Shown here: positions 392 through 28,912 of the stretch, one piece after another
Layout: each line of letters opens with the position of its first letter
How positions within the stretch are numbered: the stretch's first letter is position 1
From: Myxococcota bacterium
GTDB lineage: Bacteria; Myxococcota_A; UBA9042; DTJE01
Assembly: GCA_029975745.1 (NCBI GenBank)
Contig: JARKOL010000155.1
Location: 1-60,142 of the forward strand
DNA length: 60,142 nucleotides
Reading direction: 5' to 3'
Notes under the pieces: model-generated
Seen by the model: the letters and a program-made list of their open reading frames with translations, nothing else
Told to the model about the DNA's origin: nothing
Database searches by the model: none
Program-made: the position numbers and the translations under genes

Positions 392-2068
392 ATGGGGACG
401 ACGATGCGCGGGATCCTGCCGGCGACGGCGCTGGCGGTGTTGTTGTGGGGCTGCGGGGGCGGGACGTCCGGGGGCGATGCGACCGACGTTCCCGACGCCG
501 TCGATCCCGGCATGGACGTGCCGGCGGACCCCGGGGTGACCGATGACCCGGGCGTGCGCGACGAGGGCGCGGACCCCGGCACGCCGCCCGACGCCTCCCC
601 CGATTCGACCCCGGACGAAGGGCCGACGCCCGATGCCCCCGCCGATGTCCCCGTCGATACCCCGGACGTCCCGGCCGACGTGCCTCCCCCGCCGTTGTGG
701 GAGAACCTGGCGCCCGCCGGGGGCGGCCGGCTGGGCAGCATCGTCGGGGTCGCCAGCCACATGAACGTCGCGGCGGGCGAGGATGTCGAGCGGGCCTTCG
801 AACTGGCATCGTACCAGGAGTTCAGCGGCTTCCGGATCCGGCGTGGAATGCGCTGGAACGTCGTCGAGCCGGCCCAGGACGACTGGCGATGGGAGCGCGT
901 CTCGGGCGGGCCGAACGACAGCCACGACGCGGGCATCCGCTTCATGCCGATGCTGGCCTACGGCAACAAGTGGGCCCAGGCGGACCCCGACATCTACGGG
1001 ACCCTGAACATCGCCGACTACGCCGACTACGCCGGCCAGATGGCGGCCATGTTCTGCGACAAGGCCAAGGACTACGAGATCTGGAACGAGCAGGACACCG
1101 AGCGCTTCTGGCACATGAGGCCGGATCCCGAGCGGTACGCGGACATGCTGATCGCGGCGTCGGCCGCGATTCGCGCGTCCTGTCCGGACGCCCGCGTGGT
1201 GTTTGGCGGCCTCACGTCCTACGGCGAACTGGACATGTGGGACCGGTGGCTGTTCCTGCGCCTGGCGCTGCAGGCGCGGCCGGAGCTGTGTACGGCCATG
1301 GATGCGGTCGCCCTGCACCCGTACACGTGGTTCCAGTTCGATTCTCCGGAGCACGACGAGGTTCTGACCGAATTCGCGACCAAGGACAGCCAGTCGGCGA
1401 TGACGCGCATTGCCCGGGAGATCCTGGAGGACGCGGGGTGCGGGGACAAGCCCCTGCTGTTCACCGAGCTGGGCTGGCCCACGTACGACCTGACCGACGA
1501 ACAGGTCGCCCGCTTCGCCGTCCGCAGCCTGCTGCTGGCCGCACGGGACGGCGTCGAGGGCTGGTACTGGTACACGTTCTGGGATGACCCCCCCGAATCG
1601 GGCGGCATCCGGCCCCACGAGAATCACTTCGGGCTGTGGCGCTGGCCCGGTGCCGACGGCACGATCCGCGAGGCCAAGCCGGCATGGCACACCCTGAAGG
1701 GGGCGGATTCGCTTCTGGGCCACCACCGGTTCGCGCGGGATCTGGGACCGGCGTTGGGCCTGCCGAACGACGTGTACGTGCTGGCATTCGTGGACGAAGA
1801 CGGCGGCATCGGCCTGGCCATGTGGGACGGACGCGAGATGCCCGACGAGTGGCTGGACGGCATGGACGCGGGCGGCCCCGACACGACCTACGCCCTGGAG
1901 CTGCCGCTGCCCGACTGCACGACGGGGACGCGCCACTTCGACATGCTGGGCGATCCGATCGACGATCCCCAGGAGGGCGCATCCGTCGCCTTGACCCTGA
2001 CCCCCGAGGTCCGGTATCTGTTGATCGACTGCGCGTCGTCGCAGTCGCGACAGCCGGGCAGGCCGTGA
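392..2068 (+). CDS. Secreted lipoprotein, clan GH-A (GH5/GH39-like) glycoside hydrolase
   Basis: 558-aa ORF with a GGAGGAG SD upstream and lipobox LLWGC. An Asp/Pro-rich linker of about 75 aa follows. TIM-barrel signatures are YEIWNEQD (Asn-Glu acid/base) and LLFTELGWP (nucleophile Glu). Confidence 0.65.
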   Translation: MGTTMRGILPATALAVLLWGCGGGTSGGDATDVPDAVDPGMDVPADPGVTDDPGVRDEGADPGTPPDASPDSTPDEGPTPDAPADVPVDTPDVPADVPPPPLWENLAPAGGGRLGSIVGVASHMNVAAGEDVERAFELASYQEFSGFRIRRGMRWNVVEPAQDDWRWERVSGGPNDSHDAGIRFMPMLAYGNKWAQADPDIYGTLNIADYADYAGQMAAMFCDKAKDYEIWNEQDTERFWHMRPDPERYADMLIAASAAIRASCPDARVVFGGLTSYGELDMWDRWLFLRLALQARPELCTAMDAVALHPYTWFQFDSPEHDEVLTEFATKDSQSAMTRIAREILEDAGCGDKPLLFTELGWPTYDLTDEQVARFAVRSLLLAARDGVEGWYWYTFWDDPPESGGIRPHENHFGLWRWPGADGTIREAKPAWHTLKGADSLLGHHRFARDLGPALGLPNDVYVLAFVDEDGGIGLAMWDGREMPDEWLDGMDAGGPDTTYALELPLPDCTTGTRHFDMLGDPIDDPQEGASVALTLTPEVRYLLIDCASSQSRQPGRP

Positions 2069-2120
2069 CGTTCGCCAGACTTTCGCGACCGATCCCTGCC
2101 CCACACGAACGGGAGGACGA

Positions 2121-3833
2121 ATGAAGGCGCCCCGCCCGTCCCTGGTGGTCCTGCTGGCCTTGATGCTGGCGGGCGTGCCCGCCTGGGCCCAGCTCGAGTC
2201 GTTGCTGACGAAGTCCCCGAGGCCCGGGGCCGCATCCTCGACCGAGGGCCCTGGGGGGGAGGACGCGGGCCCCGCGAGGGCTCGCGCGACGCACGCCCGG
2301 TCACCCTCGACCTGCGGCAGTCCCCGGGCTGCCGTCGCCACGTTGCTGGACGCGCTGCAACCCGATCGTCACCAGCCGACGGCCGCCGCCCGATGCCTGG
2401 ACGCCTCCCGCCTGGGACCGGACACGCCGACGGCCCCCAGCCTGGCGGTCAAACTGAAGCAGGTGCTCGACGCACGGGGTCTGTGGGTCGATCTGGAACG
2501 GATTCCCTCGGACCCCGACTTCGTCGATGGCGCCGGCCAGCACCGATTCGACCTGTTTCCCGGCATCCTCCAACTGGTCTACGTGGAACGGCAGGAGGAC
2601 CGCTGGGTCTTCCCGGCCGACGTGGTCGAGCGTATTCCCGCGATGTACCGCGCCACATTCCCCCTGGACGTGCGGGCGATGATCGAGGTCATGCCCTCGT
2701 GGCTGCGCATGCCCGTCGCCGGGGCACGCCTGTGGCAGTTGACCGGCGTCTTCCTGCTGGTGCTGCTGGCCCTGGTGCTGCAGAAGGTCATCGTCTGGAT
2801 GACCTCGGTCCACGTCCGACGGCTGGGGCGCAGGAACAACGTCCGCTGGACCCTGGCCGCCGTCGCGCGGGCGGGCGCGCCCATGGGCGGGCTGGCGATG
2901 GCCGCGGTCTTCTGGGTCGGGTTCCCGCTGCTGGACTTCACGGTGGGCATCAACCGGGTCGTCCTGTTCGCCACCCGGGTGCTGTCCATGGGCAGCGTGG
3001 TCTGGCTGGGCTACCGGATGGCCGACGTGCTGTCCGACTTCATGCTGGAGCGTGCCGAGCGCACCGAAACGAAACTGGACGATCAGCTGGTGCCGCTGGT
3101 CCGCAAGAGCCTGAAGGTCCTGATGGTCGTGATCGGCGGCCTGTTCATCCTCCAGAACCTGCACGTCGATATCGGATCGCTGCTGGCCGGCCTGGGCCTG
3201 GGCGGCCTGGCCTTCGCCCTGGCGGCGAAGGACACCGTCGCCAACCTGTTCGGGTCCGTCATGATCTTCGTGGACCGGCCGTTCCAGATCGGGGACTGGA
3301 TCCGGATCGGGGACGTCGAGGGCACGGTCGAGGAGGTCGGCTTCCGCTCGACACGCATTCGGACATTCTACAACTCGTTGATTACGTTTCCGAACGCGCG
3401 ACTGATGGACGCGGCGGTGGACAACCTGGGGGCCCGGCGGTACCGGCGCTACTCGACAACCCTGAGCCTGACCTACGACACGCCGCCCGAGCGAATGGAC
3501 GCATTCTGCGAGGCGCTGCGCCAGTTGATCCGGGAACTGGAGGGGATGCGCAAGGACTACTTCATGGTCGAATTCAAGGAGTACGGGGCGCACTCGCTGG
3601 ACGTGATGCTGTACTGCTTCATGATCGCGCCGGACTGGGCAACCGAGATGCGCATCCGGACGAACCTGAACCTGGAAATCCTGCGCATCGCCAAGCGGAT
3701 CGGCGTTTCCTTCGCTCTCCCCACGCGGACCATCGAGTTCGCGTCGGGGTTGCCCGCGCTGCCGCCCCAGGCGATGCCCAGGGCCCCGATGGTCCAGGAC
3801 GAATCACTTCGGCAGGAATCCCGCCGGAGCTAG
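2121..3833 (+). CDS. MscS-family mechanosensitive ion channel with a long N-terminal periplasmic/TM extension
   Basis: 570 aa with a GGGAGGA SD, a signal peptide and several TM helices. It has the canonical MscS beta-domain block FQIGDWIRIGDVEGTVEEVGFRSTRIRTFYNSLITFPNA. Confidence 0.9.
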   Translation: MKAPRPSLVVLLALMLAGVPAWAQLESLLTKSPRPGAASSTEGPGGEDAGPARARATHARSPSTCGSPRAAVATLLDALQPDRHQPTAAARCLDASRLGPDTPTAPSLAVKLKQVLDARGLWVDLERIPSDPDFVDGAGQHRFDLFPGILQLVYVERQEDRWVFPADVVERIPAMYRATFPLDVRAMIEVMPSWLRMPVAGARLWQLTGVFLLVLLALVLQKVIVWMTSVHVRRLGRRNNVRWTLAAVARAGAPMGGLAMAAVFWVGFPLLDFTVGINRVVLFATRVLSMGSVVWLGYRMADVLSDFMLERAERTETKLDDQLVPLVRKSLKVLMVVIGGLFILQNLHVDIGSLLAGLGLGGLAFALAAKDTVANLFGSVMIFVDRPFQIGDWIRIGDVEGTVEEVGFRSTRIRTFYNSLITFPNARLMDAAVDNLGARRYRRYSTTLSLTYDTPPERMDAFCEALRQLIRELEGMRKDYFMVEFKEYGAHSLDVMLYCFMIAPDWATEMRIRTNLNLEILRIAKRIGVSFALPTRTIEFASGLPALPPQAMPRAPMVQDESLRQESRRS

Positions 3834-5053
3834 CGGATTTCCTGGTGCTGGCCCCCGGGTACCACGCCGGGACCCGCGTCGAACACATAGACGGCGTTGG
3901 ACATCAGCCCGGTGACGTACAGCCGACGACCGCCGCCCGCGACGTCGCCGACCGCCATCCCGTACGGATTCGACGACAGCGGCAAGCTGGCCCAGAAGGC
4001 CAGTTCGACGCCCGTCGCCGCATCGATGGCACGCACGTTGTTGTCACCGCTGTTCAGGATCAGCAGCCGGTCGCCGTCCAGAAGCAGGCTGTTGGGAAGG
4101 CTGCCGGTCCCGGCGAAGTTTCCAAAGACCTGGGGCGTTCCCGCGCCGAACGTGACCGCCGCGATGCGACTGGCCATCCCCAGCAGCAGGTACAGATTGG
4201 GCGGACCGTCCGGGCGCCACGCCGCGGCGAGAATGCCGTCCATGCTGCCCGACACGCCGACCTCGAAGGACAGCCCGTCGATCGGGGCGCCCGTGACGGC
4301 GTCCAGCACCCAGACTCGATCACGGTTGAAGCTGGCCGCGATCAGGCGCCCGGGGGATCCGGGAATCACCGTAAGCGTGTCCTGATCGCCGGCCGCCCCA
4401 AGCAGGACGGGGTTGTCCGGCCCCCGGACCAGCCTGCCCGCCCCCAGGTCCGCCTGGAACAAGGCCGCGGCGGTTCCGCTGCCCATCCAGGCCCGGTCGC
4501 CGACAATCGCCAGGGAGGATGGGTAGCCGACCAGAGGCCGCGAAGGGTCCAGGGGCAACCGGATCACCCGGTCCGGCGCGTCGGCCGTCGCCAGACCCGC
4601 AAGGGGGATGCCCACCAGGGCCCCCTCGCCGTCGGGAATCACCAGCGCCCCGTCGAACCGGGTCTGGCCGGAGCACAGGATCCAGACACGGTCCGTGCCG
4701 GTCGCGACGACCTGGGCATTCTTCGCGGCAAGCGGAATCCGGTTGACCACCCGGGCGGTGCGACGGTCCACCACGGTCGCGAATCCCTCGCGGAAGACCA
4801 GGCCGGCCCCGTCGAATCCGTACCGGCTGTTGGCCACCACAAGGTAGTCGCCGGCAACGGCCAGGCCCTCGGGCGCCGCGAAGTTCGTGGGGGGCAATCG
4901 ATCGTCGCCGGAATCGGAAGGCGCGGCCCCGTCGCGCCACGCCCCGCCGCCGTCCGGTCGAAGCATCGCGTCGGGCATGGGCTCGCATCCGGCCAGCGCC
5001 AACCACGCGAGCGCGGCGCCTCCCAGCAACAGGCTGCGGCAGAATCGCATCAT
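3830..5053 (-). CDS. YVTN/YncE-type beta-propeller lipoprotein, last gene of the riboswitch-controlled btuB-like operon (BtuG-like role proposed)
   Basis: Start ATGATG at 5053 overlaps the stop of the upstream receptor gene (ATGA). Lipobox LALAGC. Repeated blade motifs: LVVANS, VWILCS, AWMGSG, VWVLDAVTG, LLILNSGDNNVRAIDAATG, LYVTGLMSNAVYVFD. The 759-aa version in the ORF track reads through into the shadow of the receptor gene. Confidence 0.75.
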   Translation of the reverse strand: MMRFCRSLLLGGAALAWLALAGCEPMPDAMLRPDGGGAWRDGAAPSDSGDDRLPPTNFAAPEGLAVAGDYLVVANSRYGFDGAGLVFREGFATVVDRRTARVVNRIPLAAKNAQVVATGTDRVWILCSGQTRFDGALVIPDGEGALVGIPLAGLATADAPDRVIRLPLDPSRPLVGYPSSLAIVGDRAWMGSGTAAALFQADLGAGRLVRGPDNPVLLGAAGDQDTLTVIPGSPGRLIAASFNRDRVWVLDAVTGAPIDGLSFEVGVSGSMDGILAAAWRPDGPPNLYLLLGMASRIAAVTFGAGTPQVFGNFAGTGSLPNSLLLDGDRLLILNSGDNNVRAIDAATGVELAFWASLPLSSNPYGMAVGDVAGGGRRLYVTGLMSNAVYVFDAGPGVVPGGQHQEIR

Positions 5054-18823: not shown

Positions 18824-21004
18824 TCAGGGCACGTCCACGCGTTCGGGGACCAGGAACAGGTCGTCCACGAACAGGCCGTCGTCGTCCCGATCCAGTTCGG
18901 CCCGAACGTACAACCGGACCCGCCGGGCACCGACGGGCAGGCGCGTCAGGGAGACCACCTCGGTCCACTCGGCCGCCGCGATCTCGTCCGACTCGAAAGC
19001 CGCCCAGACCGAGCCGTCGCCGTCCAGGATCTCGATCCCGACAGCCCCCCGAATGCGCGCCTCGTAGGTCCTGAGCCAGCCGCCCCAGCGAACCGCGAGG
19101 GTGCCGGCATCGATCGCGTCCGCCTGGTCGGAAAGGACAAGGTCCGTCACCAGCCGGGAACGACCCGAGGCCGGCGCATCCAGGTCCGACAAGGCATGCG
19201 CCAGCCAGCATGCCCGGCCGGACCGGCAGTTCGGCGGGAACAGCGCGATGCCCCACGGCCCGAGCGGATTCATGTCCCGCAGCACCATCCACCCCGGGCC
19301 GAAACTCCAGGCGCCCGCCCCCGGTTCGCCCTCGGCACCGAAGTCCGGCAGCCGGTTGGCCCCGACCCTCGCGTGGGGGGTGTCCAGTTCCAGGAATCCC
19401 AGATAGGCGTCGTCCATCGCGGCGTCGTTCGATTCCCCGCTGTGCAGCTTGTTGTGCGCCATCCAGACCCAGTCGGCCCAGCGGGTCCCGGGCGGCACGT
19501 CGATCGCGGCGACAAACGGATGCCACCCGATCGTGTCCCGTCGGCCCGACGCCACGTGATGCAACGGGTTTCCCCCGGCGTCCCGCAGCGTCATGACCAC
19601 CTCGCCATCGTCGTACGTCTTCAGGATGTTCGAGGTCTCGACCCCGTCGGTGGCCACGTCGGTCCCGGAGGCCATCCAGGCGGATGCCAGCAACCGGCCC
19701 CGACCCGCATCGATTGCCGCGGCATGCGCCGTCAGATCGACGGTCTGGGACCAGGACGACCAGGGCGCCATCGCGTCCGGCAGCCCGTTGGCCCCGACGA
19801 ACATCGCAGTCCCGGTCCGGGGCGTCAGGTTGCGTCGCAACGAGGCCACCGCCGCGTCGCCGGCCGCTGTCCAGTTCGCCCCCCCGTCCTCGCCCCCCGG
19901 GTCGCCCAGCAGGTTGCCGGGACGTTCGGCTTCGGGCGGGAACTCGCGAAACACGTCCCGACGGGCCGCGAACGGGTCCGTCGTGTACGGCACCATCGGA
20001 TCCAGGGGAAACCGCAAGGTCGCTACGACCGGCTTGTGGTCGGACAGCACCGGCGACAGGTTCGGCGCGTCGGCATCCAGGACGATCGCGGGAAACGCCC
20101 GTCGGAAGAAGACCAGATCGATCGTCTGGGCCCCTTCGGTCTCGTCGAATCCGGTCGATGGCCAGGTCACCTTCTGGCCCGGGTACAACCCCATCGTCGT
20201 GAACGCGTCGGCCAGCAGCGTTTCAAGAATCGTGTTCTGCGACGAATGGTGCTCGTCGTTGAAGTCGCCCAGCATCACCAGATGCGGCCAGGGATCGGCG
20301 GGAATCACCTCCTGGACGATCTGGCGGGCCTGACGCGTCCCGGCCAGGTCCCAGGAGATGTGGGTCGCATAGACCGACACGGTGACGCCGCCAACCTGAA
20401 GCGTCGCGTGCAGCAGGGATCGCCCGTCCACCAGGGACACTTCCCGCACGTCCGCCAGCGGGGTCGCCGACAGCAGCGCCTTGTCCCCGGCGAACGTCGT
20501 ATGGGGCAGGCCGGCCTCCAGGGCCACGGTCTGCAGGTGAACCTCCCGCATCTCGCTCAACGCAACGACGTCCGGCGCCAGCGTGGCCAGGTACGCCCCG
20601 ATCGCCTCGGGCGTCGCCGTTCGAAAGCCGTACACGTTCAGGGCCGCGACGCGCAGGTCGAATCCCGGCGGCAGTTCGACGGCGGGCTCGGGCACGACGG
20701 CGGGCAGAACCAGGGTTTCAGGCAGGACATCCTGCACCCATGGCCAGCCGGGGTCCGGGGACGCCGCATCGTCGGTGTCCTCGTCCGCATCCTTGGGCCC
20801 GGTCCCCGGGTCGTCCGGCAGTCCCCCGACGTCCCCGTTCCCGGCATCCGGTCCCGCATCCACGGCATCCGGCCCTCCCGGATCCAACGCCACGACATCC
20901 GGCAGTTCCCCCGTTCCGGCATCCCCGGAAACCGCGTCGTGGCCGCACCCGGCCATCCACAGAATCGCCGCGATCAGGAACGCGCCCCTTCGCCATCGCA
21001 TCAT
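18824..21004 (-). CDS. Lipoprotein with an endonuclease/exonuclease/phosphatase (EEP) domain and a large C-terminal beta-rich module
   Basis: Start MMRWRRGAFLIAAILWMAGC at 21004 (lipobox MAGC), followed by an Asp/Pro linker. EEP blocks are LRVAALNVYGF, DVVALSEM, LVMLGDFNDEHHS and LSDHKPVVATL. Confidence 0.75.
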   Translation of the reverse strand: MMRWRRGAFLIAAILWMAGCGHDAVSGDAGTGELPDVVALDPGGPDAVDAGPDAGNGDVGGLPDDPGTGPKDADEDTDDAASPDPGWPWVQDVLPETLVLPAVVPEPAVELPPGFDLRVAALNVYGFRTATPEAIGAYLATLAPDVVALSEMREVHLQTVALEAGLPHTTFAGDKALLSATPLADVREVSLVDGRSLLHATLQVGGVTVSVYATHISWDLAGTRQARQIVQEVIPADPWPHLVMLGDFNDEHHSSQNTILETLLADAFTTMGLYPGQKVTWPSTGFDETEGAQTIDLVFFRRAFPAIVLDADAPNLSPVLSDHKPVVATLRFPLDPMVPYTTDPFAARRDVFREFPPEAERPGNLLGDPGGEDGGANWTAAGDAAVASLRRNLTPRTGTAMFVGANGLPDAMAPWSSWSQTVDLTAHAAAIDAGRGRLLASAWMASGTDVATDGVETSNILKTYDDGEVVMTLRDAGGNPLHHVASGRRDTIGWHPFVAAIDVPPGTRWADWVWMAHNKLHSGESNDAAMDDAYLGFLELDTPHARVGANRLPDFGAEGEPGAGAWSFGPGWMVLRDMNPLGPWGIALFPPNCRSGRACWLAHALSDLDAPASGRSRLVTDLVLSDQADAIDAGTLAVRWGGWLRTYEARIRGAVGIEILDGDGSVWAAFESDEIAAAEWTEVVSLTRLPVGARRVRLYVRAELDRDDDGLFVDDLFLVPERVDVP

Positions 21005-21168
21005 CTGGCTCCCATCGCCGGGTTTCCAAGCGTAGGTGCCCGAACGGCCGACGGTCAAGACACGACCGCGACGAATCCGGGCCGAACTCAGGGCCCAGGT
21101 CCACTGCCCCTTTTCGTGGACGCCCCAAAGCGGGACAATGCGGCCGAGGGTCGCGAGAGAGGCTGCTG

Positions 21169-21768
21169 ATGATCCTGAAAGTGGCGCGTATGGGACACCC
21201 GGTGTTGCGGCGACGCGCCGATCCAGTGACCCCGGAGGACTTCGCCTCCGGCTGGGTCGCCGCCACGGTGCGCAACCTGTTCGACACGATGGCCGAGTAT
21301 GACGGCGTCGGCCTGGCCGCGCCCCAGGTACACCTTTCGAAGCGGCTCGCCGTGGTCGAGGTGCCCGGAGGGCCGGGCCAGGGCATCCCGCCGACCCCGA
21401 TGATCAACCCGGTGGTCCAGCCACTGACCGAACGCGAGATGGAGATCTGGGAAGGCTGCCTGTCCGTGCCGGGACTCATTGGTCTGGTGCCGCGCCCGGC
21501 GGCGGTTCGGGTGGACTACCTGGACATCGACGGTCGCCCCTCGCATCGGGTCGTCCAGGGATTCGCCGCGGCGGCGGTCCAGCACGAGTGCGACCACCTG
21601 GATGGCGTGCTGTACGTCGATCGCATCCGCGATCGCGCCACGCTGATGTTCACCGAGGAGTACCAGCGGCACCACCTGGGGCGCGGCCGGGCGGCGGACG
21701 GTGACGGCGTGGACGGCGCATCGCCGGCCGAGGTCGCCGACGACAGCCGCGACGGGATCCCCGGATGA
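21169..21768 (+). CDS. def: Peptide deformylase
   Basis: MILKVARMGHPVLR start. The three canonical motifs are present: GVGLAAPQV, EGCLSVPG and QHECDHLDG. There is an extra C-terminal tail of about 35 aa. The stop overlaps the archease start (ATGA). Confidence 0.92.
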   Translation: MILKVARMGHPVLRRRADPVTPEDFASGWVAATVRNLFDTMAEYDGVGLAAPQVHLSKRLAVVEVPGGPGQGIPPTPMINPVVQPLTEREMEIWEGCLSVPGLIGLVPRPAAVRVDYLDIDGRPSHRVVQGFAAAAVQHECDHLDGVLYVDRIRDRATLMFTEEYQRHHLGRGRAADGDGVDGASPAEVADDSRDGIPG

Positions 21769-22190
21769 CCCGCCCCCGCTACCAGGTCGTGGAGCACACG
21801 GCGGACTTCGCGTTCCGGGTGACCGCGGCCGACCTGCCGGATCTGGTTCAGGCGGCGATCCTGGCGGTCGTCGATGCCGGCTGGGGCATCGAGACGCTGC
21901 GGCCCGGAGGCACCCTGACCCCGGTGGACCTGCCGGTCGATGACGCCGAGATGACGCTCTTCCGGGCGCTGTCCGAGGTCCTGTTCCTGATCGATGCGCG
22001 CGGCCTGATTCCGGCCCAGGTGACCGTGACCCGCGACGCGAGCGGCGGATTGTCGCTGGGCCTGGACTGCGATCGGCTGGACCCGGCCCGTCACGGGCAC
22101 CGGGTCGCGTTCAAGGCCGTGACCCTGCATGGTCTGAACGTCGTCGCGGGCGGCGAGGGCCTGGTCGCAACCGTCCTGATGGATACCTGA
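21765..22190 (+). CDS. Archease (RtcB activator/chaperone)
   Basis: 141 aa with the N-terminal VEHTADFAFRV motif and the C-terminal FKAVTLHGLNV block. Confidence 0.85.
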   Translation: MTRPRYQVVEHTADFAFRVTAADLPDLVQAAILAVVDAGWGIETLRPGGTLTPVDLPVDDAEMTLFRALSEVLFLIDARGLIPAQVTVTRDASGGLSLGLDCDRLDPARHGHRVAFKAVTLHGLNVVAGGEGLVATVLMDT

Positions 22191-22276
22191 ACCGGAGGAC
22201 AGCGTGGCCGAACCCAACCGAACCCTGCGCTGGGAACGACGCGACGAATCGCGCGTCGTGATCCCCCGGCACGGCG
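22134..22276 (+). repeat. Left copy of a 143-bp direct repeat (archease 3' end + rtcB 5' end)
   Basis: Aligned by eye to 26670-26812 with 8 mismatches in 143 positions and no gaps. Confidence 0.9.
22204..22276 (+). pseudogene. Truncated 5' fragment of rtcB (first 24 codons only)
   Basis: It encodes (GTG)AEPNRTLRWERRDESRVVIPRHG, identical to the N-terminus of the intact RtcB at 26740. Past 22276 the ORF becomes Arg/Gly/Pro-rich non-homologous sequence. Confidence 0.8.
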
Positions 22277-22514
22277 GGTTCGCGAGGCGAGGCGGCGCAC
22301 GGCGGGCGCAGTCGGATGTCCCGGATTGCAGCGATCCCGGTCCTCGCGTTGATCCTGTCGGCGTGCGCGCAGCCCACGATTCCCGCGATCCCGCCGCCAC
22401 CGGCCGACTCGGCCGCCATCCTGATGATGGCGACGTCGAGCGTTCCGATCCTGGAGCCCGCCGCTGAGCCCGCCCTGGAGCCCGCTGCGGCACCCGACGC
22501 CGATTCCGATCCCC

Positions 22515-24761
22515 TCACGGCAGGGCGAAGCCCCTGCGGGTCACCCGGGCGAAGTCCAGGACCAGCGCGGCATCGTCCAGCGTGACCAGCATCTGCGGGC
22601 TGCCCCACGCCTGGGACACGTGGGCGTTGTCGAAGCGCGCGAAGGGGCCGAGGTCCACCGGCGCGCCGTTCACGGTCATCGGTCCCTCCCAGGCCACTTC
22701 CACCCGGCCCAGGGACGGCGAGTCGTAGGACACGCCGCCGTCGGGGAACGACAGGTCCGCGGCCAGGATCGCCGCCGCGAAGTCCGCGAAGCTGCCGTGG
22801 TCCGCGGCGCGCCCCAGTTCCACCACGAACACGTTGTCGGTGCCGTCGGCGATCCACTCGACGGGGTCGTCGTCGGCCCACCGGGTCGGGTTCCGGGACG
22901 CCAGGGCCACGTAGCCGTCCCCCTTCCGCCCGAACACCCAGGAACCGCCCTCCAGGAACTCGTCGAAGCGGTCCTTCGGGAAGAAGGCGTGGGTCCGGTC
23001 CGCCGACAGCAGATCCTCGACCGCGGGATTGCCCGGCAGCCGGTACTGGATGACCCCGACGTTCCGGTCGAACGTGGCCCTGGGGTGGTACCCCCCGTGC
23101 CACTTGCCGGCGAAGTTCCGGCTCAGGTCCCCGGCCAGGCCGAGGACGGCCGGGAAGGACGTGAAGACGTAGCAGTCCGGGTCCAGCGTCGCCAGCCACA
23201 TCCGCGTCTGGGTGCCCCAGTCCGTCGGGTGGTAGTCCTGGGCCCCGGACAGCTGGTAGTCGGGGGTCCGGTAGGTGTACGTGGACATGCGCTGCAGGGC
23301 CATGCCCCGGCTGACGGGCGCCAGGGACTCGGCCAGATCCGGCAGGACGCCCATGCCCCGGTTGTCCCGCAGGAGCGACAGGTAGTCGTCGGGGATCTCG
23401 TTGAACAGGAAGCCGTCCCAGAGATCCTCTTCCTCCAGCATGGCCACCATGCCCTCGATGAGCTCGGGGGCGGCCAGGACCCCCATGCCGGCCCAGATGA
23501 CGACGTCGTCGGTGCCCTCGTACGAGATGCCCCACTCGGGCCCCTCGGCCAGGTCGATCGAGTCCCGCTGCCGGTGCTCGAACGGGCCCGTCCGGACCGC
23601 CTGGGCCAGATCCTCGAGGATCGGCGGGGGGAAGTACCACGGACTCGTGGCCAGGAAGGCCGCCCCGAAGTTGCCGGTCGCCTTCCAGTTCCCCAGTCCC
23701 AGCAGGATCCAGGCCGCCTCGGTCGTCGAGTCGTTCAGCCGGTCCAGGAACTTGCTGGGATAGGTCCGCCCCATGACCGTGGCGAAGAGGCCGTCATGCA
23801 TGTTCGACAGCAGGTCCACGGCCAGGACGTCCAGGACCATCGCGGCCTTGGTGCGGACCGACTCGTCCTCGGCGAAGTCGGCCAGGTTGACCAGCGCCGG
23901 GATGTCCTCGTTGAAGTAGACGTTCGAATGCCACTCCGAGAACCCGATGCGCCCCCGCAGGTCCAGCCACCGGTGCAGCCTGCGCGCGGCATGGGCCATG
24001 TGCATGGCGCCGGTCTTCCCGTCGTTGCCGAACGCCGTCTCGGGGAACAGCTGGCCCACCAGGAACTCCCCCGAATGGAACAGGGCCTGGTGGTTCTCGG
24101 TCCAGTAGCACATGGCGTCCTTGCCCGGCTCGTCCAGCCAGTACTTGAACCCCAGCAGGGTGTCCTGGATCCGGGTCCGCAGTTCCTGGGGAAGCGCGCC
24201 CGTCTGCCGGTCCAGGTAGAGCATGCGGACCAGGGCGGCCAGGCGGAAGTCCGAGGTGTCCTGCCGGGCGTTCATCCGCTCGATCGCGGCGTCGAGGGCG
24301 TCGTCGTTGTAGGTGGACTGGCCCGTGGCCACCCGGCAGACCTGGCCGGCCCAGTCCCCCTGGCCGGGCCCGTTCTCGTCCGAGCAGACGTGCAGGTACT
24401 CGGCCTGCCGGGCCTTGTAGCCGGCCGAAGCCTCCAGGGGAACCGGCGTGCCGGGTTCCAGGGGGTCGGGCCAGACGTCGGTCCGCGGCACGTCGCCGGG
24501 TTCGGCCGTGTCCGGGGATCCCGGGTCGTCGCCGTCGGCGCCCGGATCGCCGGGCAGATCCGGGGCGTCCGAACCGTCCGGATCCGGCGGGGACACGTCC
24601 GGTCCCCCCTCGTCCCCGGGGGCGCCCGGATCCCCGACCGCGTCCGGGGTTGCCGGGACATCTGCCGCCCCTTCGCCGCCCCCGCACCCCCAGGCCAGGG
24701 TCGAGGCCAGGACCAGGACCCCGAGCCGCCTCCCGAGCGTTCCCTGCATCTTCGCGCGCAT
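22515..24761 (-). CDS. Large lipoprotein, possibly (alpha/alpha)-toroid polysaccharide-lyase-like (heparinase II/III-like); function tentative
   Basis: Start MRAKMQGTLGRRLGVLVLASTLAWGC at 24761 with a GGGAGG SD 6 nt upstream, followed by an Asp/Pro linker. Blocks such as CYWTENHQALFHSGEFLVGQLF and GFSEWHSNVYFNEDIPALVNL resemble that fold only loosely. Confidence 0.6.
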   Translation of the reverse strand: MRAKMQGTLGRRLGVLVLASTLAWGCGGGEGAADVPATPDAVGDPGAPGDEGGPDVSPPDPDGSDAPDLPGDPGADGDDPGSPDTAEPGDVPRTDVWPDPLEPGTPVPLEASAGYKARQAEYLHVCSDENGPGQGDWAGQVCRVATGQSTYNDDALDAAIERMNARQDTSDFRLAALVRMLYLDRQTGALPQELRTRIQDTLLGFKYWLDEPGKDAMCYWTENHQALFHSGEFLVGQLFPETAFGNDGKTGAMHMAHAARRLHRWLDLRGRIGFSEWHSNVYFNEDIPALVNLADFAEDESVRTKAAMVLDVLAVDLLSNMHDGLFATVMGRTYPSKFLDRLNDSTTEAAWILLGLGNWKATGNFGAAFLATSPWYFPPPILEDLAQAVRTGPFEHRQRDSIDLAEGPEWGISYEGTDDVVIWAGMGVLAAPELIEGMVAMLEEEDLWDGFLFNEIPDDYLSLLRDNRGMGVLPDLAESLAPVSRGMALQRMSTYTYRTPDYQLSGAQDYHPTDWGTQTRMWLATLDPDCYVFTSFPAVLGLAGDLSRNFAGKWHGGYHPRATFDRNVGVIQYRLPGNPAVEDLLSADRTHAFFPKDRFDEFLEGGSWVFGRKGDGYVALASRNPTRWADDDPVEWIADGTDNVFVVELGRAADHGSFADFAAAILAADLSFPDGGVSYDSPSLGRVEVAWEGPMTVNGAPVDLGPFARFDNAHVSQAWGSPQMLVTLDDAALVLDFARVTRRGFALP

Positions 24762-24837
24762 GCGCCGCCTCCCTTCCACCCCGGGCCATGGCCCGCGGCG
24801 ATGACGACCGGAACCGGCTCCTGCCGGCCGGCCAGCG

Positions 24838-26214
24838 CTACGGATCGACCGAGGGCAGCCGGTCCACCAGGGACCGCAGGGCGACGGTCCGGCGAAGGTT
24901 CCGGGCCGCGATCCCCCGGAAGGATTCCGAGAGGCGCGCATCCTCCGCCAGCAGGCCCCAGTAGCCGACGGCCGCCTCGACGGCCGGCCCGGCGACGTCC
25001 GCGACATCGGGTCCCAGGACCGGCAGCGCGTGATCCTGGGCGGGCAACTCGCTCTGCCACGGGTGGTAGTGCATGGGCAGCATGTCGTAGACCGGGGCCA
25101 GGGACGTCACGCGCACGCCGTCCAGCAGGAAGGCCAGGTTGCCCAGGTGCATGTCCGTGTTCCCGATCAGCCGGCCGAAGCACTCGAGCCAGCGAATCCG
25201 CGACACCGCGTCGCGGGGAATCACGTTCCTCGCGGCCAGCGCCTCGGCCGAGACCGTCCAGCCCGTCAGGTCCGTCCCCGCGAACTCGGCGTCCAGCACG
25301 TCCAGGGCGATCTGGCCGATGCGATGCTCGAGCCCGTCGCGGTCGAACCGCTCGACCTCGAGAAACACGTGCGCCCCCGCCTGCAGCAACGCGGTGTTCG
25401 GCACCCGGAAGCCGTTGCGGCCCAGGGTCTGCAGCGCGGTCTGCTCGGCCACCAGCAGGTCCGCGACGCGCCGGCCGATCGTCTCGTCCGCGCGGGTCGC
25501 GTACTTCACCAGCACGGGTGTCAGGCGGTCGCCGTCGCGCCGCGTGGCCAGGAACTTGGGCTGCTCCCCGGCGGCCGAGGACCCGGCGGTGCCGAACGCC
25601 AGCAGGTCGGCGACGATGGCCGGATAGCGCTCGGTGCGTTCGGCGGCCTCGACGAGATTCGACGGGTGATCGATCTCCCGGAGGAACGTGGCGCAGGCCT
25701 CGTCGCCGACGAGGAACGCGCCGGGAGCGTCCCAACCGAACCGGGACGCGAACCGCAGCACGTGGTCCGCGGTCCAGGCCCGGATGTCCGCGGGAAGGCC
25801 GAGTTCCGGGTGGCGCCGAGGCACCAGTCGCCCCAGGAAGCCCGACGGACGCGCGTTCCGGAGGAACCAGGGCAGATCCTCGAAGAACCGCTCGCCGTCC
25901 CCGGAGTCGAGGAGGTACGACCGGCCGCCGACCGCATGCAGCGTGCCGAATCGACGCATTCGTTCCCCGCGGGGACGCACCTCGTAGACGGCGATCGGCT
26001 GGCGAACCCCCGGGATCTCGCGTGCCAGGACGTACCGCCGGGCGCTGGTGCGCCCGAACGTGCGCACCTCGCCTTCCAGCGTCGCGACCAGTCGCGAGAA
26101 CGTCGGCTGGCTGATGCCGAGTTCGCGGACCAGTTCCGATGGGGTTGCCACGCCCCGCCTGGCCAGCAGCGCCATCAAACGTTCGTGCAGGAGTGCTCTG
26201 CGGTTCGATTCCAT
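24838..26214 (-). CDS. HipA-family kinase with a fused N-terminal HTH domain (YjjJ-like type II toxin)
   Basis: ATG at 26214 (MESNRRALL...). The HTH is ATPSELVRELGISQPTFSRLVATL. HipA C-domain blocks are GEQPKFLA, IGNTDMHLGNLAFLL and LAPVYDMLPM. Confidence 0.8.
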   Translation of the reverse strand: MESNRRALLHERLMALLARRGVATPSELVRELGISQPTFSRLVATLEGEVRTFGRTSARRYVLAREIPGVRQPIAVYEVRPRGERMRRFGTLHAVGGRSYLLDSGDGERFFEDLPWFLRNARPSGFLGRLVPRRHPELGLPADIRAWTADHVLRFASRFGWDAPGAFLVGDEACATFLREIDHPSNLVEAAERTERYPAIVADLLAFGTAGSSAAGEQPKFLATRRDGDRLTPVLVKYATRADETIGRRVADLLVAEQTALQTLGRNGFRVPNTALLQAGAHVFLEVERFDRDGLEHRIGQIALDVLDAEFAGTDLTGWTVSAEALAARNVIPRDAVSRIRWLECFGRLIGNTDMHLGNLAFLLDGVRVTSLAPVYDMLPMHYHPWQSELPAQDHALPVLGPDVADVAGPAVEAAVGYWGLLAEDARLSESFRGIAARNLRRTVALRSLVDRLPSVDP

Positions 26215-26669
26215 GCGGCTATGAATAGAGCACTCACTCAAGAAAAGCAAGGGATATCATGGGACAGTCGTCATTGCGAATAATGTGGTGAATGAAGTCA
26301 CGAATGGACACCTTTCGCCAAGGACGAGCGAGCGATGCGGCCGGGGTGGTTTGGCCGTTGCCGCCGGCCGACCTGCTGACAAGCCCGGGTCGCGGGCCGG
26401 CGGAAGCGGAAGCCCTGATCGAGTGGATGATGGCGCACGAGGAGGCGTGGCGTGGATGAACTCTTCGTCCTGGCGCGGCGGGTCGGCGCCCGAAGTGTCT
26501 CGGTCGTGACCCCTTGATGCGCGCCGATCAGGCTTCCAGAAGCGGCTCATGCCCCGGCGGATGAAGTCGCGACTGGTCTTCAGACCGATCGTGGAGGAAC
26601 GTTGCTGCATCGCGATTGTCTGTGAGCAGGTCGGAAGCTGTGGAACAATAAGCCTCCTATGGATGCGAG

Positions 26670-26812
26670 CTGAACGTCGTCGCGAGCCGCGAGGGCCTGG
26701 TCGCAACCGTCCTGATGGACACCTGAACCGGGGGACTCCATGGCCGAACCCAACCGAACCCTGCGCTGGGAACGGCGCGACGAATCGCGCGTCGTGATCC
26801 CCCGGCACGGCG
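26670..26812 (+). repeat. Right copy of the 143-bp direct repeat (archease 3' fragment + intact rtcB 5' end)
   Basis: See the left copy. It encodes ...LNVVASREGLVATVLMDT-stop, followed by the functional rtcB start. Confidence 0.9.
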
Positions 26813-28197
26813 CGATGCGTGTCGATGGACTCGTCTATGCCACCGAGTCGCTGATGGCCCAAGGCGTGGATGCCGCGGCGCTGGGCCAGGTCGTCGCGGT
26901 CGCGACCCTGCCGGGAATCGTGACCCACTCGCTGGCGATGCCCGACATCCATTGGGGGTACGGGTTCCCGATCGGAGGCGTCGCGGCGTTCGACATGGAC
27001 GAGGGCATCGTGTCGCCCGGCGGCGTCGGATTCGACATCAACTGCGGGGTCCGCATGCTGCGGTCGAACCTGACGCTGGAGGATGTCTCGAACCGCCTGG
27101 ACGACCTGCTGGCCGCCCTGTTCGCCGCCGTCCCGGCCGGCCTGGGGTCGCACCAGCGCGACATCCGGCTGGACCGCGACCGGATGCGGGCCGTGGCCCG
27201 CGAGGGTGCCGGCTGGGCCGTCCGCCAGGGCTTCGGGTCGCCGTCGGACCTGGACGTCCAGGAGGACCGCGGCCGCATCGCCGACGCGGACTTCGACGCG
27301 GTGTCGGACAAGGCGATCGAGCGGGGGCGCGACCAGTTGGGAACCCTGGGTTCCGGCAATCACTTCGTCGAGGTCGGCGTGGTGGACCGCATTGACGAGC
27401 CGGCGGCTGCCGCCGCGTTCGGACTGTTCGAGGGCGGCATCGTCGTGACCCTGCACACCGGCTCCCGAGGTTTCGGCCACCAGGTATGCACCGACTTCCT
27501 GCCGTGGATGGATCGGGCGGCCCGTCAGGCGGGGATCACGCTGCCGGACCGCCAGCTGGCCTGCGCCCCCCTGCGCTCCGGCGAGGGTCGCGCCTACCTG
27601 GCCGCGATGGCCTGCGCGGCGAACTTCGCGTTCGCCAACCGCCAGGTGCTGTCGCACCGGGTGCGCCAGGCCTTCGAGGCCGCACTGCGCGAGTCCCCCG
27701 GGCACCTGGGCATGGCCGTCGTCTATGATGTCGCCCACAACATCGCCAAGGTCGAGACCCACACGGTGGACGGGCGGTCGCGACGCGTCTGCGTCCATCG
27801 CAAGGGGGCGACGCGGGCCCTGGCCGCGGGCCACCCGGACCTGCCCGCACCCTACCGCGCCGTCGGCCAACCGGTCCTGGTGCCGGGCGACATGGGACGA
27901 CCGTCCTTCGTTCTGGTCGGCATGCCGGGCGCCGCGCGGGACACGTTCGCCAGCGCCTGCCATGGCGCGGGTCGCATGCTGTCCCGGTCGGCCGCCATCC
28001 GTTCGGCGCGAGGACGCGACATCCGGGACGAACTGGCGCGCAGGGGCGTTCGCGTCCGCGCAGCGGGACACGAGACGCTGGCCGAGGAGATGCCGGATGC
28101 CTACAAGGACGCCGGCGAGGTGGTCGATGTGATGCACCGGGCCGGCGTCGCGGCCCGGGTCGCCCGGATCCGCCCGCTGGCGGTCGTCAAGGGGTAG
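26740..28197 (+). CDS. rtcB: RNA-splicing ligase RtcB
   Basis: 485 aa with the blocks GYGFPIGGVAAFD, GGVGFDINCGVR, GSGNHFVE, HTGSRGFGHQV, HRKGATRA and CHGAGR. Confidence 0.95.
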   Translation: MAEPNRTLRWERRDESRVVIPRHGAMRVDGLVYATESLMAQGVDAAALGQVVAVATLPGIVTHSLAMPDIHWGYGFPIGGVAAFDMDEGIVSPGGVGFDINCGVRMLRSNLTLEDVSNRLDDLLAALFAAVPAGLGSHQRDIRLDRDRMRAVAREGAGWAVRQGFGSPSDLDVQEDRGRIADADFDAVSDKAIERGRDQLGTLGSGNHFVEVGVVDRIDEPAAAAAFGLFEGGIVVTLHTGSRGFGHQVCTDFLPWMDRAARQAGITLPDRQLACAPLRSGEGRAYLAAMACAANFAFANRQVLSHRVRQAFEAALRESPGHLGMAVVYDVAHNIAKVETHTVDGRSRRVCVHRKGATRALAAGHPDLPAPYRAVGQPVLVPGDMGRPSFVLVGMPGAARDTFASACHGAGRMLSRSAAIRSARGRDIRDELARRGVRVRAAGHETLAEEMPDAYKDAGEVVDVMHRAGVAARVARIRPLAVVKG

Positions 28198-28291
28198 TTC
28201 ACCGACCCGAGGGGACACCCCAAAACGTCGCCCCTTGCCGACCCGCCCCCCCGGAGGTATCCTGCCGAAAGTCCTGAATCGGAGCCCCGTC

Positions 28292-28912
28292 ATGCTTCGA
28301 ACGATGCGATGGCCCGTGCGCGTTTCGCGGCTCTTGACCGGGTCCGCCCTGCTGGCGCTGGTATTGCTGGCCGCCTCGCCGGCCTGGGCGCTGGATGTGG
28401 CCGGAGTCACCTATCCGGACACGGTCGATGTGGGCGGCCGCACGCTGCACCTGCTCGGCGCCGGCAAGCGCGAGGCGACCGTGTTCAAGGTGGATGTCTA
28501 TGTCGGGGCGGTTTTCGCGGAACACCGCTCGTGCGACATGGGCTCCCTTGTCCGGAGGGACCAGGCGCGCCTGTTCTACATGGACTTCCTGCGCAACGTC
28601 CCCGCGGACAAGCTGATGGAGAACATGGTCGAGAACTTCCGCAACCACACGCCGGCCGACGCCTCCCCCGATCTGCGCCAGCGAATCGACGGATTCATCC
28701 GACTGTTCAAGCGCTCGGCCAAGAAGGGCAGCCGGGTCGAGATCCGCTACGTCCCGGGCCAGGGAACCACGGTGTCGTCTGGGACCGAGGTGCTGGGGCC
28801 GCCGGTGCCGGGTTCGGACTTCGCCGCGGTGGTCTGGCACATCTGGTTCGGCGACAACACCTGCTGTCCGGACCTGCTGCGGTCCGTGCGCCGCACCTGC
28901 GCTGCAAGATAG
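28292..28912 (+). CDS. Periplasmic chalcone-isomerase-like domain protein
   Basis: ATG at 28292 (GGAG SD) and a signal peptide ending SPAWA. The pattern GRTLHLLGAGKREATVFKVDVYVGAVF is typical of the bacterial chalcone-isomerase-like family. An alternative start lies at 28304. Confidence 0.65.
   Translation: MLRTMRWPVRVSRLLTGSALLALVLLAASPAWALDVAGVTYPDTVDVGGRTLHLLGAGKREATVFKVDVYVGAVFAEHRSCDMGSLVRRDQARLFYMDFLRNVPADKLMENMVENFRNHTPADASPDLRQRIDGFIRLFKRSAKKGSRVEIRYVPGQGTTVSSGTEVLGPPVPGSDFAAVVWHIWFGDNTCCPDLLRSVRRTCAAR

Follow-up and report, generated by a model that had tools for sequence, protein, structure and literature searches.

Acquired genes flanked by duplicated pieces of the recipient's own sequence are described from the complex class 1 integrons. 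In the ISCR1 model of Toleman et al., a rolling-circle intermediate of an IS91-family element is rescued by homologous recombination and the target is duplicated in the process, and this circle-and-rescue scheme is the accepted explanation for the duplicated 3' conserved segment (3'-CS) around captured genes in these integrons (PMC3575428, PMC7707992). Here we describe a locus of comparable layout in the 60,142-nt contig JARKOL010000155.1 (assembly GCA_029975745.1), called the window when the whole stretch is meant. It comes from a Myxococcota species found in wastewater and sludge, and in it the genes for archease and the RNA-repair ligase RtcB are separated by a 4393-bp insert (the islet) lying between two 143-bp direct repeats, each a copy of the archease/rtcB junction. 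Our overall reading, held with middling confidence, is that a non-autonomous accessory patchwork was inserted with duplication of the junction and is polymorphic among strains. Two other kinds of element serve as reference points below. Integrative islands and the integrative plasmids of actinomycetes (SLP1-type, at tRNA genes) include a copy of the 3'-terminal part of the gene into which they integrate, and transposons and insertion sequences (ISs) typically produce target duplications of 2-15 bp and have a transposase and terminal repeats.

The two repeat copies (left, 22134-22276; right, 26670-26812; neither is assigned a strand) were defined by MAFFT alignment and by a repeat search. They align without gaps over 143 nt with 8 mismatches (94% identity), at repeat positions 16, 19, 51, 63, 68, 69, 71 and 106. 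Given the base composition, the expected number of chance pairs with at least 135 of 143 matches within the window is about 6e-53, and the next-longest exact direct repeat in the window measures 17 nt; these two copies are the only ones in the genome (4.26 Mb, 408 contigs). In each, the 18 final archease codons and the stop are followed by a 13-nt spacer and then by 24 codons from the start of rtcB. The left copy completes the intact archease and continues into a stub of rtcB with a GTG start, and the right copy has an 18-codon archease stub with two amino-acid replacements (Gly to Ser and Gly to Arg), followed by the spacer and the true ATG start of rtcB. As judged from the reading frames, none of the 18 terminal codons of archease is lost, and rtcB still has its ribosome-binding site, its start codon and the 24 codons that open the gene. 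An earlier note, made from the letters of this DNA, had described the repeat, its content with the two different start codons, and between the copies two minus-strand genes (a kinase and a 748-aa lipoprotein) with about 500 bp of non-coding DNA. The alignment and the repeat search reproduce its coordinates and mismatch count exactly, the content is correct in every detail, and the non-coding part amounts to 455 bp without an intact gene, at 61-64% GC.

Comparison with related genomes indicates which arrangement is the older one. Archease lies 18-30 nt upstream of rtcB in six of them, namely the sister species (G001), four other members of the family (G014, G008, G005 and G011, with the order def-archease-rtcB in G008) and a further member of the class (G026). 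In other species the islet was not found at the archease/rtcB site, the relatives that have both genes showing an intact junction, and none of the 107 genomes of the class contains a close DNA match to the insert. In public metagenomes, at least nine studies on wastewater, sludge or digesters have runs that contain the stretch. Allele states were assigned from exact-protein look-ups and from read and contig mapping of the runs X1, X6, X7 and X10 (three studies). Two unbranched Logan contigs have the empty site with one 143-bp copy. The first, L130 (SRR30726160, 19.6 kb), extends from the Hxs radical-SAM genes via def-archease-rtcB to the TrkA/RyR gene and is 95-98% identical to the window, with complete synteny on either side of the site; the second, L076 (SRR29823654), also reads def-archease-rtcB. 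A chimeric origin of L076 at k=31 is unlikely, given the second empty-site contig L130 and the observation that samples bearing the branch break their contigs at the repeat. Because relatives and sister strains have an uninterrupted archease-rtcB, the insertion is derived and strain-polymorphic. The earlier note had proposed an integration or duplication-insertion event at a gene junction that split an operon, and had suggested looking for an uninterrupted, single-copy junction in related genomes. Such junctions are present in the six genomes and in L130 and L076, and the empty-site strains together with the derived, polymorphic state bear the proposal out.

The insert itself occurs in more than ten other samples, and some of these have identical repeat copies. 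Diverged copies are found in the window and its source runs, where Logan contigs break at the single 31-mer that both copies share (repeat positions 20-50). The left junction, from archease through the left copy into the insert, is spanned by L077 at 99.7% identity; the right junction is spanned by L131 and by a 4453-nt contig in X6 and X7, which begins at left-copy position 114, covers the insert completely and ends at right-copy position 30 (window 22247-26699). Identical copies are found in X6, X7 and partly X10. There the left-flank contig ends at repeat position 30, and seven more contigs from other samples (L106, from the source study, among them) end at this same position, which is the graph branch. 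The 143-nt unitig has a depth of 55.7 and 53.7 in X6 and X7, about twice the approximately 26-38 of flanks and insert, and therefore both repeat copies are identical in these runs. This unitig shows 3 differences from the window's right copy, a count that by itself equals that of L076, and L076 differs from the right copy of L131 at one site. The insert is as deep as its flanks within about 15% in all four runs (X1, X6, X7 and X10), which fits a single-copy integrated segment. In the source run X1 the contig holding the insert (22209-26121) has a depth of 13.2 against 15.4-15.5 for both flanks, with no consistent deficit in the other runs; a minority of empty-site cells could account for this, or noise.

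A third state of the site carries different cargo. In SRR27449288/9, L107 and L108 represent the left side of this allele and L131 the right side, the middle being unrecovered. L131 matches window 26477-28654 at 98.3% and has a right copy of ancestral type; to the left of 26477 it is unrelated to the window and contains (L131 1-1405) an internal relic of about 150 bp of an IS91-family tnpA and an HD-domain gene. L107 (3388-5584) and L108 have archease and then, from about repeat position 83, unrelated DNA that includes a gene 93% identical to contig C266 of the present genome and a segment that looks like the end of the IS91-family copy found on its contig C43. The alternative allele thus differs in cargo and shares with the window allele the right junction and the 186 bp next to it, in a strain whose flanks are 98-99.5% identical to the window. 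Presence, absence and replacement of the insert are polymorphic among sister strains that are 95-99.7% identical. JGI metagenome contigs, queried with archease, yielded only relatives at no more than 55% identity and no sister strains.

The positions at which the repeats differ were read against the other strains. In the window's right copy, with A16, C19 and G106, positions 16 and 19 are the ones that set it apart, and they fall within the dead archease tail. The window's left copy has the variants T51, A63, A68, G69 and G71 (L-type, the same in L075 and L077) and is peculiar at positions 51, 63, 69 and 71; the first of these affects the live archease and is synonymous, and the other three surround the dead rtcB start. 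The remaining two positions, 68 and 106, are standing polymorphisms shared with empty-site strains, and L-type left copies occur on at least two flank backgrounds. By this pattern the copies were identical at origin, and their present differences combine relaxed constraint on the dead halves with allele shuffling by homologous recombination among strains. That homologous recombination acts on the repeats is shown by positions 68 and 106 being polymorphic in empty-site strains and by L-type copies sitting on different flanks. An account of the cluster of left-copy changes at the dead rtcB start as pure post-insertion drift or selection is weakened by the standing polymorphisms at positions 68 and 106. 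As a separate observation, near-identical strains differ in the 13-nt spacer and start codon of rtcB, of which at least four allelic forms occur (read at window 22196-22204 and 26732-26740, L107 3450-3462 and L130 9993-10001), and the dead left copy combines the change from ATG to GTG with a stronger Shine-Dalgarno sequence, GGAGGA.

The insert (22277-26669) is a patchwork of six pieces. At its left end lies an orphan segment (22277-22511, no strand) that contains the start of an 89-aa open reading frame (ORF; 22316-22585, plus strand) with a lipoprotein-type signal ending in the lipobox LSAC. Neither the segment nor this small ORF has a homologue in 21 genomes of the order, a Pfam match or a DNA match in the class. 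The second piece is the module 22512-24772 with the gene for big748, a 748-aa lipobox protein of an unnamed family (22515-24761, minus strand). It has no match in Pfam, NCBIfam or PDB, and a language-model search of the Atlas gave just a weak lead to polysaccharide lyases. The third is the module 24792-26311, which comprises a solitary kinase gene of the YjjJ/HipH type (hipH; 24838-26214, minus strand, 458 aa) and 97 bp of its upstream, relatively AT-rich control region. The kinase has an N-terminal MarR-type helix-turn-helix (HTH) domain (MarR_2) and a HipA_C domain (Pfam, E 1.3e-21), and scores 395.2 bits over positions 4-443 of the 446 of the NCBIfam YjjJ model (NF007297), whose cut-off is 401. 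YjjJ (HipH) of Escherichia coli is a solitary Ser/Thr kinase toxin with HTH-HipA architecture (PMC9948734; family survey PMC8262856). The islet kinase resembles it in aligning over the whole model, in its N-terminal HTH and in having no adjacent HipB; it differs in falling 6 bits short of the equivalog cut-off and in belonging to the Myxococcota, and is a predicted kinase or toxin. The remaining pieces are short. A 54-bp orphan (26312-26365) is followed by a 118-bp relic of the junction between an AbiEi-antitoxin and a nucleotidyltransferase-toxin gene (26366-26483, plus strand). The counterpart of this relic in another genus (G013:C133) is complete and 97% identical, and contig C163 of the present genome matches it at 95%. 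The intact neighbours in G013 match AbiEi_2 weakly (E 0.0028, 18.4 bits, cut-off 21) and NTP_transf_8 with 25.4 bits (cut-off 26.3).

The sixth piece is the orphan right end of 186 bp (26484-26669, no strand) that is common to the window allele and the alternative-cargo allele. It has no further copy in its own genome or in the order, belongs to no Rfam family and shows no unusual RNA fold on either strand (z = 0.8 and 0.1); Rfam at a permissive threshold also gave no match in 21500-27200. At about 70-73%, the cargo genes have the same GC content as the flanks, with a drop at 26100-26850 alone, and a compositional island signal is absent from the GC profile. Elsewhere, the AbiEi-like/NTP_transf_8 pair itself (L073, from G013:C133, 5613-7530; G000:C163:1023-1122) is 95-97% identical in nucleotide sequence between the present genome and one of another genus, with weaker copies (73-83%) throughout the class, which suggests a recently mobile toxin-antitoxin module.

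The two larger modules are shared with another Myxococcota species, called species D here, in which cargo proteins more than 90% identical are encoded on contigs L118 (ENA), L120 and L121 (Logan) and L142 (JGI). The big748 module has 91.5% nucleotide identity to L118-L121, with homology ending at the gene edges; the hipH module, over window 24792-26311 only, has 95.7% identity to L142, L143 and L144. The flanking housekeeping genes of species D are 72-78% identical to those of the present genome. Because the identity of the cargo far exceeds the genome-wide identity of the two species, the cargo has been exchanged between them. L118 and L142 are 99.4-99.7% identical outside one variable region, which in L118 holds a 500-aa gene and then big748, and in L142 an nSTAND-NTPase/TPR gene, hipH, the same 500-aa gene and a different 1188-aa gene. 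The closest relatives of the two cargo genes thus lie in a single hot region, flanking the 500-aa gene on its two sides, and the insert is exchanged chromosomal accessory DNA, not a dedicated mobile element. The idea that hipH and big748 form a conserved cassette was rejected, since their orthologues in other genera (big748 49-58%, hipH 65-70% identical, in other contexts) are never adjacent. Neither a phage nor a plasmid vehicle was found: IMG/VR, queried with hipH, returned matches of 38-40% only, and PLSDB, queried with the whole insert, returned just short matches of 72-75%.

Three further observations concern this cargo. The variable region of species D (L118 8100-12330; L142 6300-17000) lies between polysaccharide-synthesis genes and an APH-RNase II block and shows whole-gene module swaps with sharp edges, at which no boundary motif was recognised. 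A 388-bp stretch of a 379-aa gene of species D (L118 7727-8114) is 92% identical to a short contig of the present genome (G000:C78:259-646) and is likely another exchanged fragment, because this identity is far above the background of 72-78%. Finally, a paralogue of big748 with 37% identity (G000:C259:13994-16363) is present in all family members searched; its frame in the present genome has one TAG.

Genes that could move the insert were sought within it and around it. The insert ORFs match HipA_C and HTH families only, with no recombinase or transposase family among them. The 60-kb contig has no tyrosine integrase (the PF00589 matches of the genome are on other contigs), and no recombinase occurs among the annotated genes of L130 (12-33 kb in window coordinates), L107 and L131; serine recombinase profiles were not searched genome-wide. 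There is no tRNA gene in the whole window, and no inverted repeat pairs the ends of the insert among the 25 of 115 pairs listed. Like transposons and ISs, the islet is flanked by a direct target duplication, but this measures 143 bp, and in contrast to them it has no transposase domain and no listed terminal inverted repeats, so that it does not qualify as a DDE transposon or IS. Neither does the window allele qualify as an IS91/ISCR unit, which would have a Y2 HUH transposase and an oriIS inside. The only IS91-family debris in this islet is in the alternative allele, as the tnpA relic of about 150 bp and the end-like piece. We considered whether the shared 186-bp right end is the upstream end of an IS91 element and rejected this: the tnpA relic of L131 is cut at both ends, and the C43 copy diverges exactly where the shared segment begins. 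Overall the insert is non-autonomous, with no self-encoded mobility. The genome does contain IS91-family elements with Zn_Tnp_IS91 and Y2_Tnp domains (G000:C43:1579-3634, C54:2794-4362 and C114:12-1304); the Y2 transposase genes of C54 and C114 are each immediately preceded by a tyrosine-integrase gene, and many contig ends have scattered end-like pieces of about 100-150 bp nearby.

For the origin of the duplication we tentatively favour, at somewhat less than an even chance, a circular intermediate that entered the intact junction by one homologous, Campbell-type crossover. The circle would already have carried the 143-bp junction, taken up by aberrant excision or by IS91/ISCR-type rolling-circle read-through, and a single homologous crossover with the intact archease/rtcB junction would have duplicated those 143 bp. 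The same repeats would allow the islet to move between strains by homologous recombination and to be lost without a scar, both of which would follow from the flanking repeats as such. This route is favoured because of the ISCR1 precedent, the IS91-family genes in the genome and the IS91 debris adjoining the shared 186 bp in the alternative allele. The topology of IS91/ISCR homologous rescue fits the window allele: as in ISCR1 integrons, acquired genes are flanked by a duplicate of the recipient's own sequence (the 3'-CS in their case, the archease/rtcB junction in ours), a short target duplication and inverted ends are both lacking, and the captured neighbours form a mosaic. IS91-family elements in this genome and their debris in the alternative allele extend the likeness, as a circumstantial link. 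Unlike ISCR1 integrons, the window allele lacks a Y2 transposase gene and a recognisable oriIS, its duplication is only 143 bp and it carries no resistance genes. The order of homologous segment, insert and homologous segment, reversible via the repeats, is that of merodiploids formed by Campbell integration or in the manner of specialised transduction; the islet differs from those examples in being a natural chromosomal event with only 143 bp of homology and a putative circle.

Several points weigh against this route. No circular form was seen, nor an intermediate in which the insert abuts a junction that has not been duplicated. Comparison of the window with the IS91-family copy on C43 gave no similarity, and the window allele contains neither IS91 sequence nor a recognisable oriIS. 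Where the copies are identical, integration and an empty site accompanied by a 4.5-kb circle look alike in a k=31 graph; the integrated form is preferred there because insert and flanks have equal depth, no replication gene is present, and the paths are unambiguous in the window contig, L077 and L131, in which the copies differ or one is truncated. Lastly, a one-step duplication in situ needs fewer events and equally predicts the perfect copies of X6 and X7.

Such a one-step duplication is the strongest competitor, although we consider it rather unlikely. It would have arisen from a 143-nt staggered break that was filled in while foreign DNA was captured, or from a stalled replication fork that switched template into ectopic DNA and returned 143 nt back; both would leave a true 143-bp target-site duplication around the insert. 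A single event would suffice, and the identical copies in X6 and X7, the sharp edges of the repeat and the lack of a mobile-element gene are all expected from it; the short segments of different origin (the 54-235 bp orphans and the 118-bp relic) also resemble serial template switches. The larger cargo modules, on the other hand, look like whole genes with their own promoters, not like short templated patches. Microhomology is absent from the right junction (GCGAG at the end of the insert, ATGGT at the end of the left flank), and Ku was not found in the genome (87% complete), which counts against Ku-dependent non-homologous end joining. To our knowledge, target duplications of more than 100 bp are not an established outcome of bacterial break repair.

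A more speculative possibility, to which we give little credence, would make the junction and the 186-bp right end a reusable docking site. Whole-gene modules (toxin kinase, lipoprotein, HD-domain protein and toxin-antitoxin debris, with gene-precise edges as in the variable region of species D) would be swapped there by an unrecognised mechanism acting in trans, possibly IS91-type rolling-circle replication with homologous rescue, that systematically duplicates the junction and harms neither flanking gene.

The earlier note had further likened the repeats to attL and attR, and on that view the islet would be a decayed site-specific island that lost its integrase and whose 143-bp attP was identical to the junction. 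Several features recall integrative islands: direct repeats of tens to more than 100 bp that rebuild the target (here both gene ends, compared with gene 3' ends there), empty sites in sister strains, accessory or toxin-type cargo, and two alleles with a common right junction and 186-bp segment, the behaviour expected of an att-proximal arm. In contrast to integrative islands, the islet has neither an integrase nor a tRNA target, its repeat spans two gene ends, and it was not found at this site in other species. Recombinases are missing from the insert, from the 60-kb contig and from both pieces of the alternative allele, no element was found at the site in those related genomes whose locus was read, and searches of phage and plasmid collections gave no related sequence. 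Perfect repeats in some strains, moreover, leave little time for an integrase to be lost completely. Site-specific recombination of the attL/attR kind is thus not sustained, and a decayed island is improbable. An assembly artefact or an ancient fixed rearrangement, the two outcomes by which the earlier note's claim would fall, is very improbable even for a metagenome-assembled genome of 408 contigs and short-k graphs that are ambiguous across the repeat, since both junctions recur in independent public assemblies from several studies, the 8 differing sites in the source sample allow the copies to be phased, presence, absence and alternative-cargo alleles coexist among the sister strains, and other genera have the intact junction.

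Both genes flanking the duplicative insertion are preserved. The def-archease(-rtcB) unit begins with the gene for peptide deformylase (21169-21768, plus strand, 199 aa by the gene call of the public contigs; Pfam Pep_deformylase), and def and archease are still translationally coupled in insert carriers. Archease is intact (21765-22190, plus strand, 141 aa) and matches PF01951 over positions 1-135 of 136 (E 1.3e-22); the identical protein is encoded on L075, L076 and L077. The rtcB stub forms an 87-aa frame (22204-22467, plus strand) of a GTG start, 24 rtcB codons and then insert DNA. It has no Pfam match, its tblastn match is limited to rtcB residues 1-28, and it is probably not a functional protein. 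The intact rtcB (26740-28197, plus strand, 485 aa) matches PF01139 over positions 1-426 of 426 (E 3e-168), retains its own Shine-Dalgarno sequence and ATG, and is 52-70% identical to the orthologues that adjoin archease in relatives. RtcB and archease are thus both full length, and are encoded by neighbours in relatives and in empty-site strains and 4.5 kb apart in this strain. As the earlier note had stated, rtcB is physically uncoupled from def-archease; it now lies that distance away, behind two convergent genes. Because of this position it must, on the predicted layout, be transcribed in carriers from inside the right end of the insert or by read-through; simple scans of 20900-28400 detected no sigma-70 promoters and no intrinsic terminators. 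The three-gene unit def-archease-rtcB is found in this species (in empty-site strains) and in genus g7 (L025, G008, 1644-4053), and other relatives have archease-rtcB without def.

The kind of event seen here is known, namely an islet flanked by its duplicated target in a Campbell- or ISCR-like topology, and no new kind of system is needed to explain it. A 143-bp duplication that preserves two genes, with no recombinase, is an uncommon instance of it: fairly ordinary genome plasticity by an unusual duplicative route. The locus offers a natural example of foreign genes taken into an operon with both neighbours undamaged, through duplication of their junction. Empty, filled and alternatively filled states all persist in public metagenomes, so that the route is testable with long reads. 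In carriers of the window allele a solitary HipA/YjjJ-type kinase now adjoins an RNA-repair ligase gene that is cut off from its former promoter, and the expression of the repair system could change as a result.

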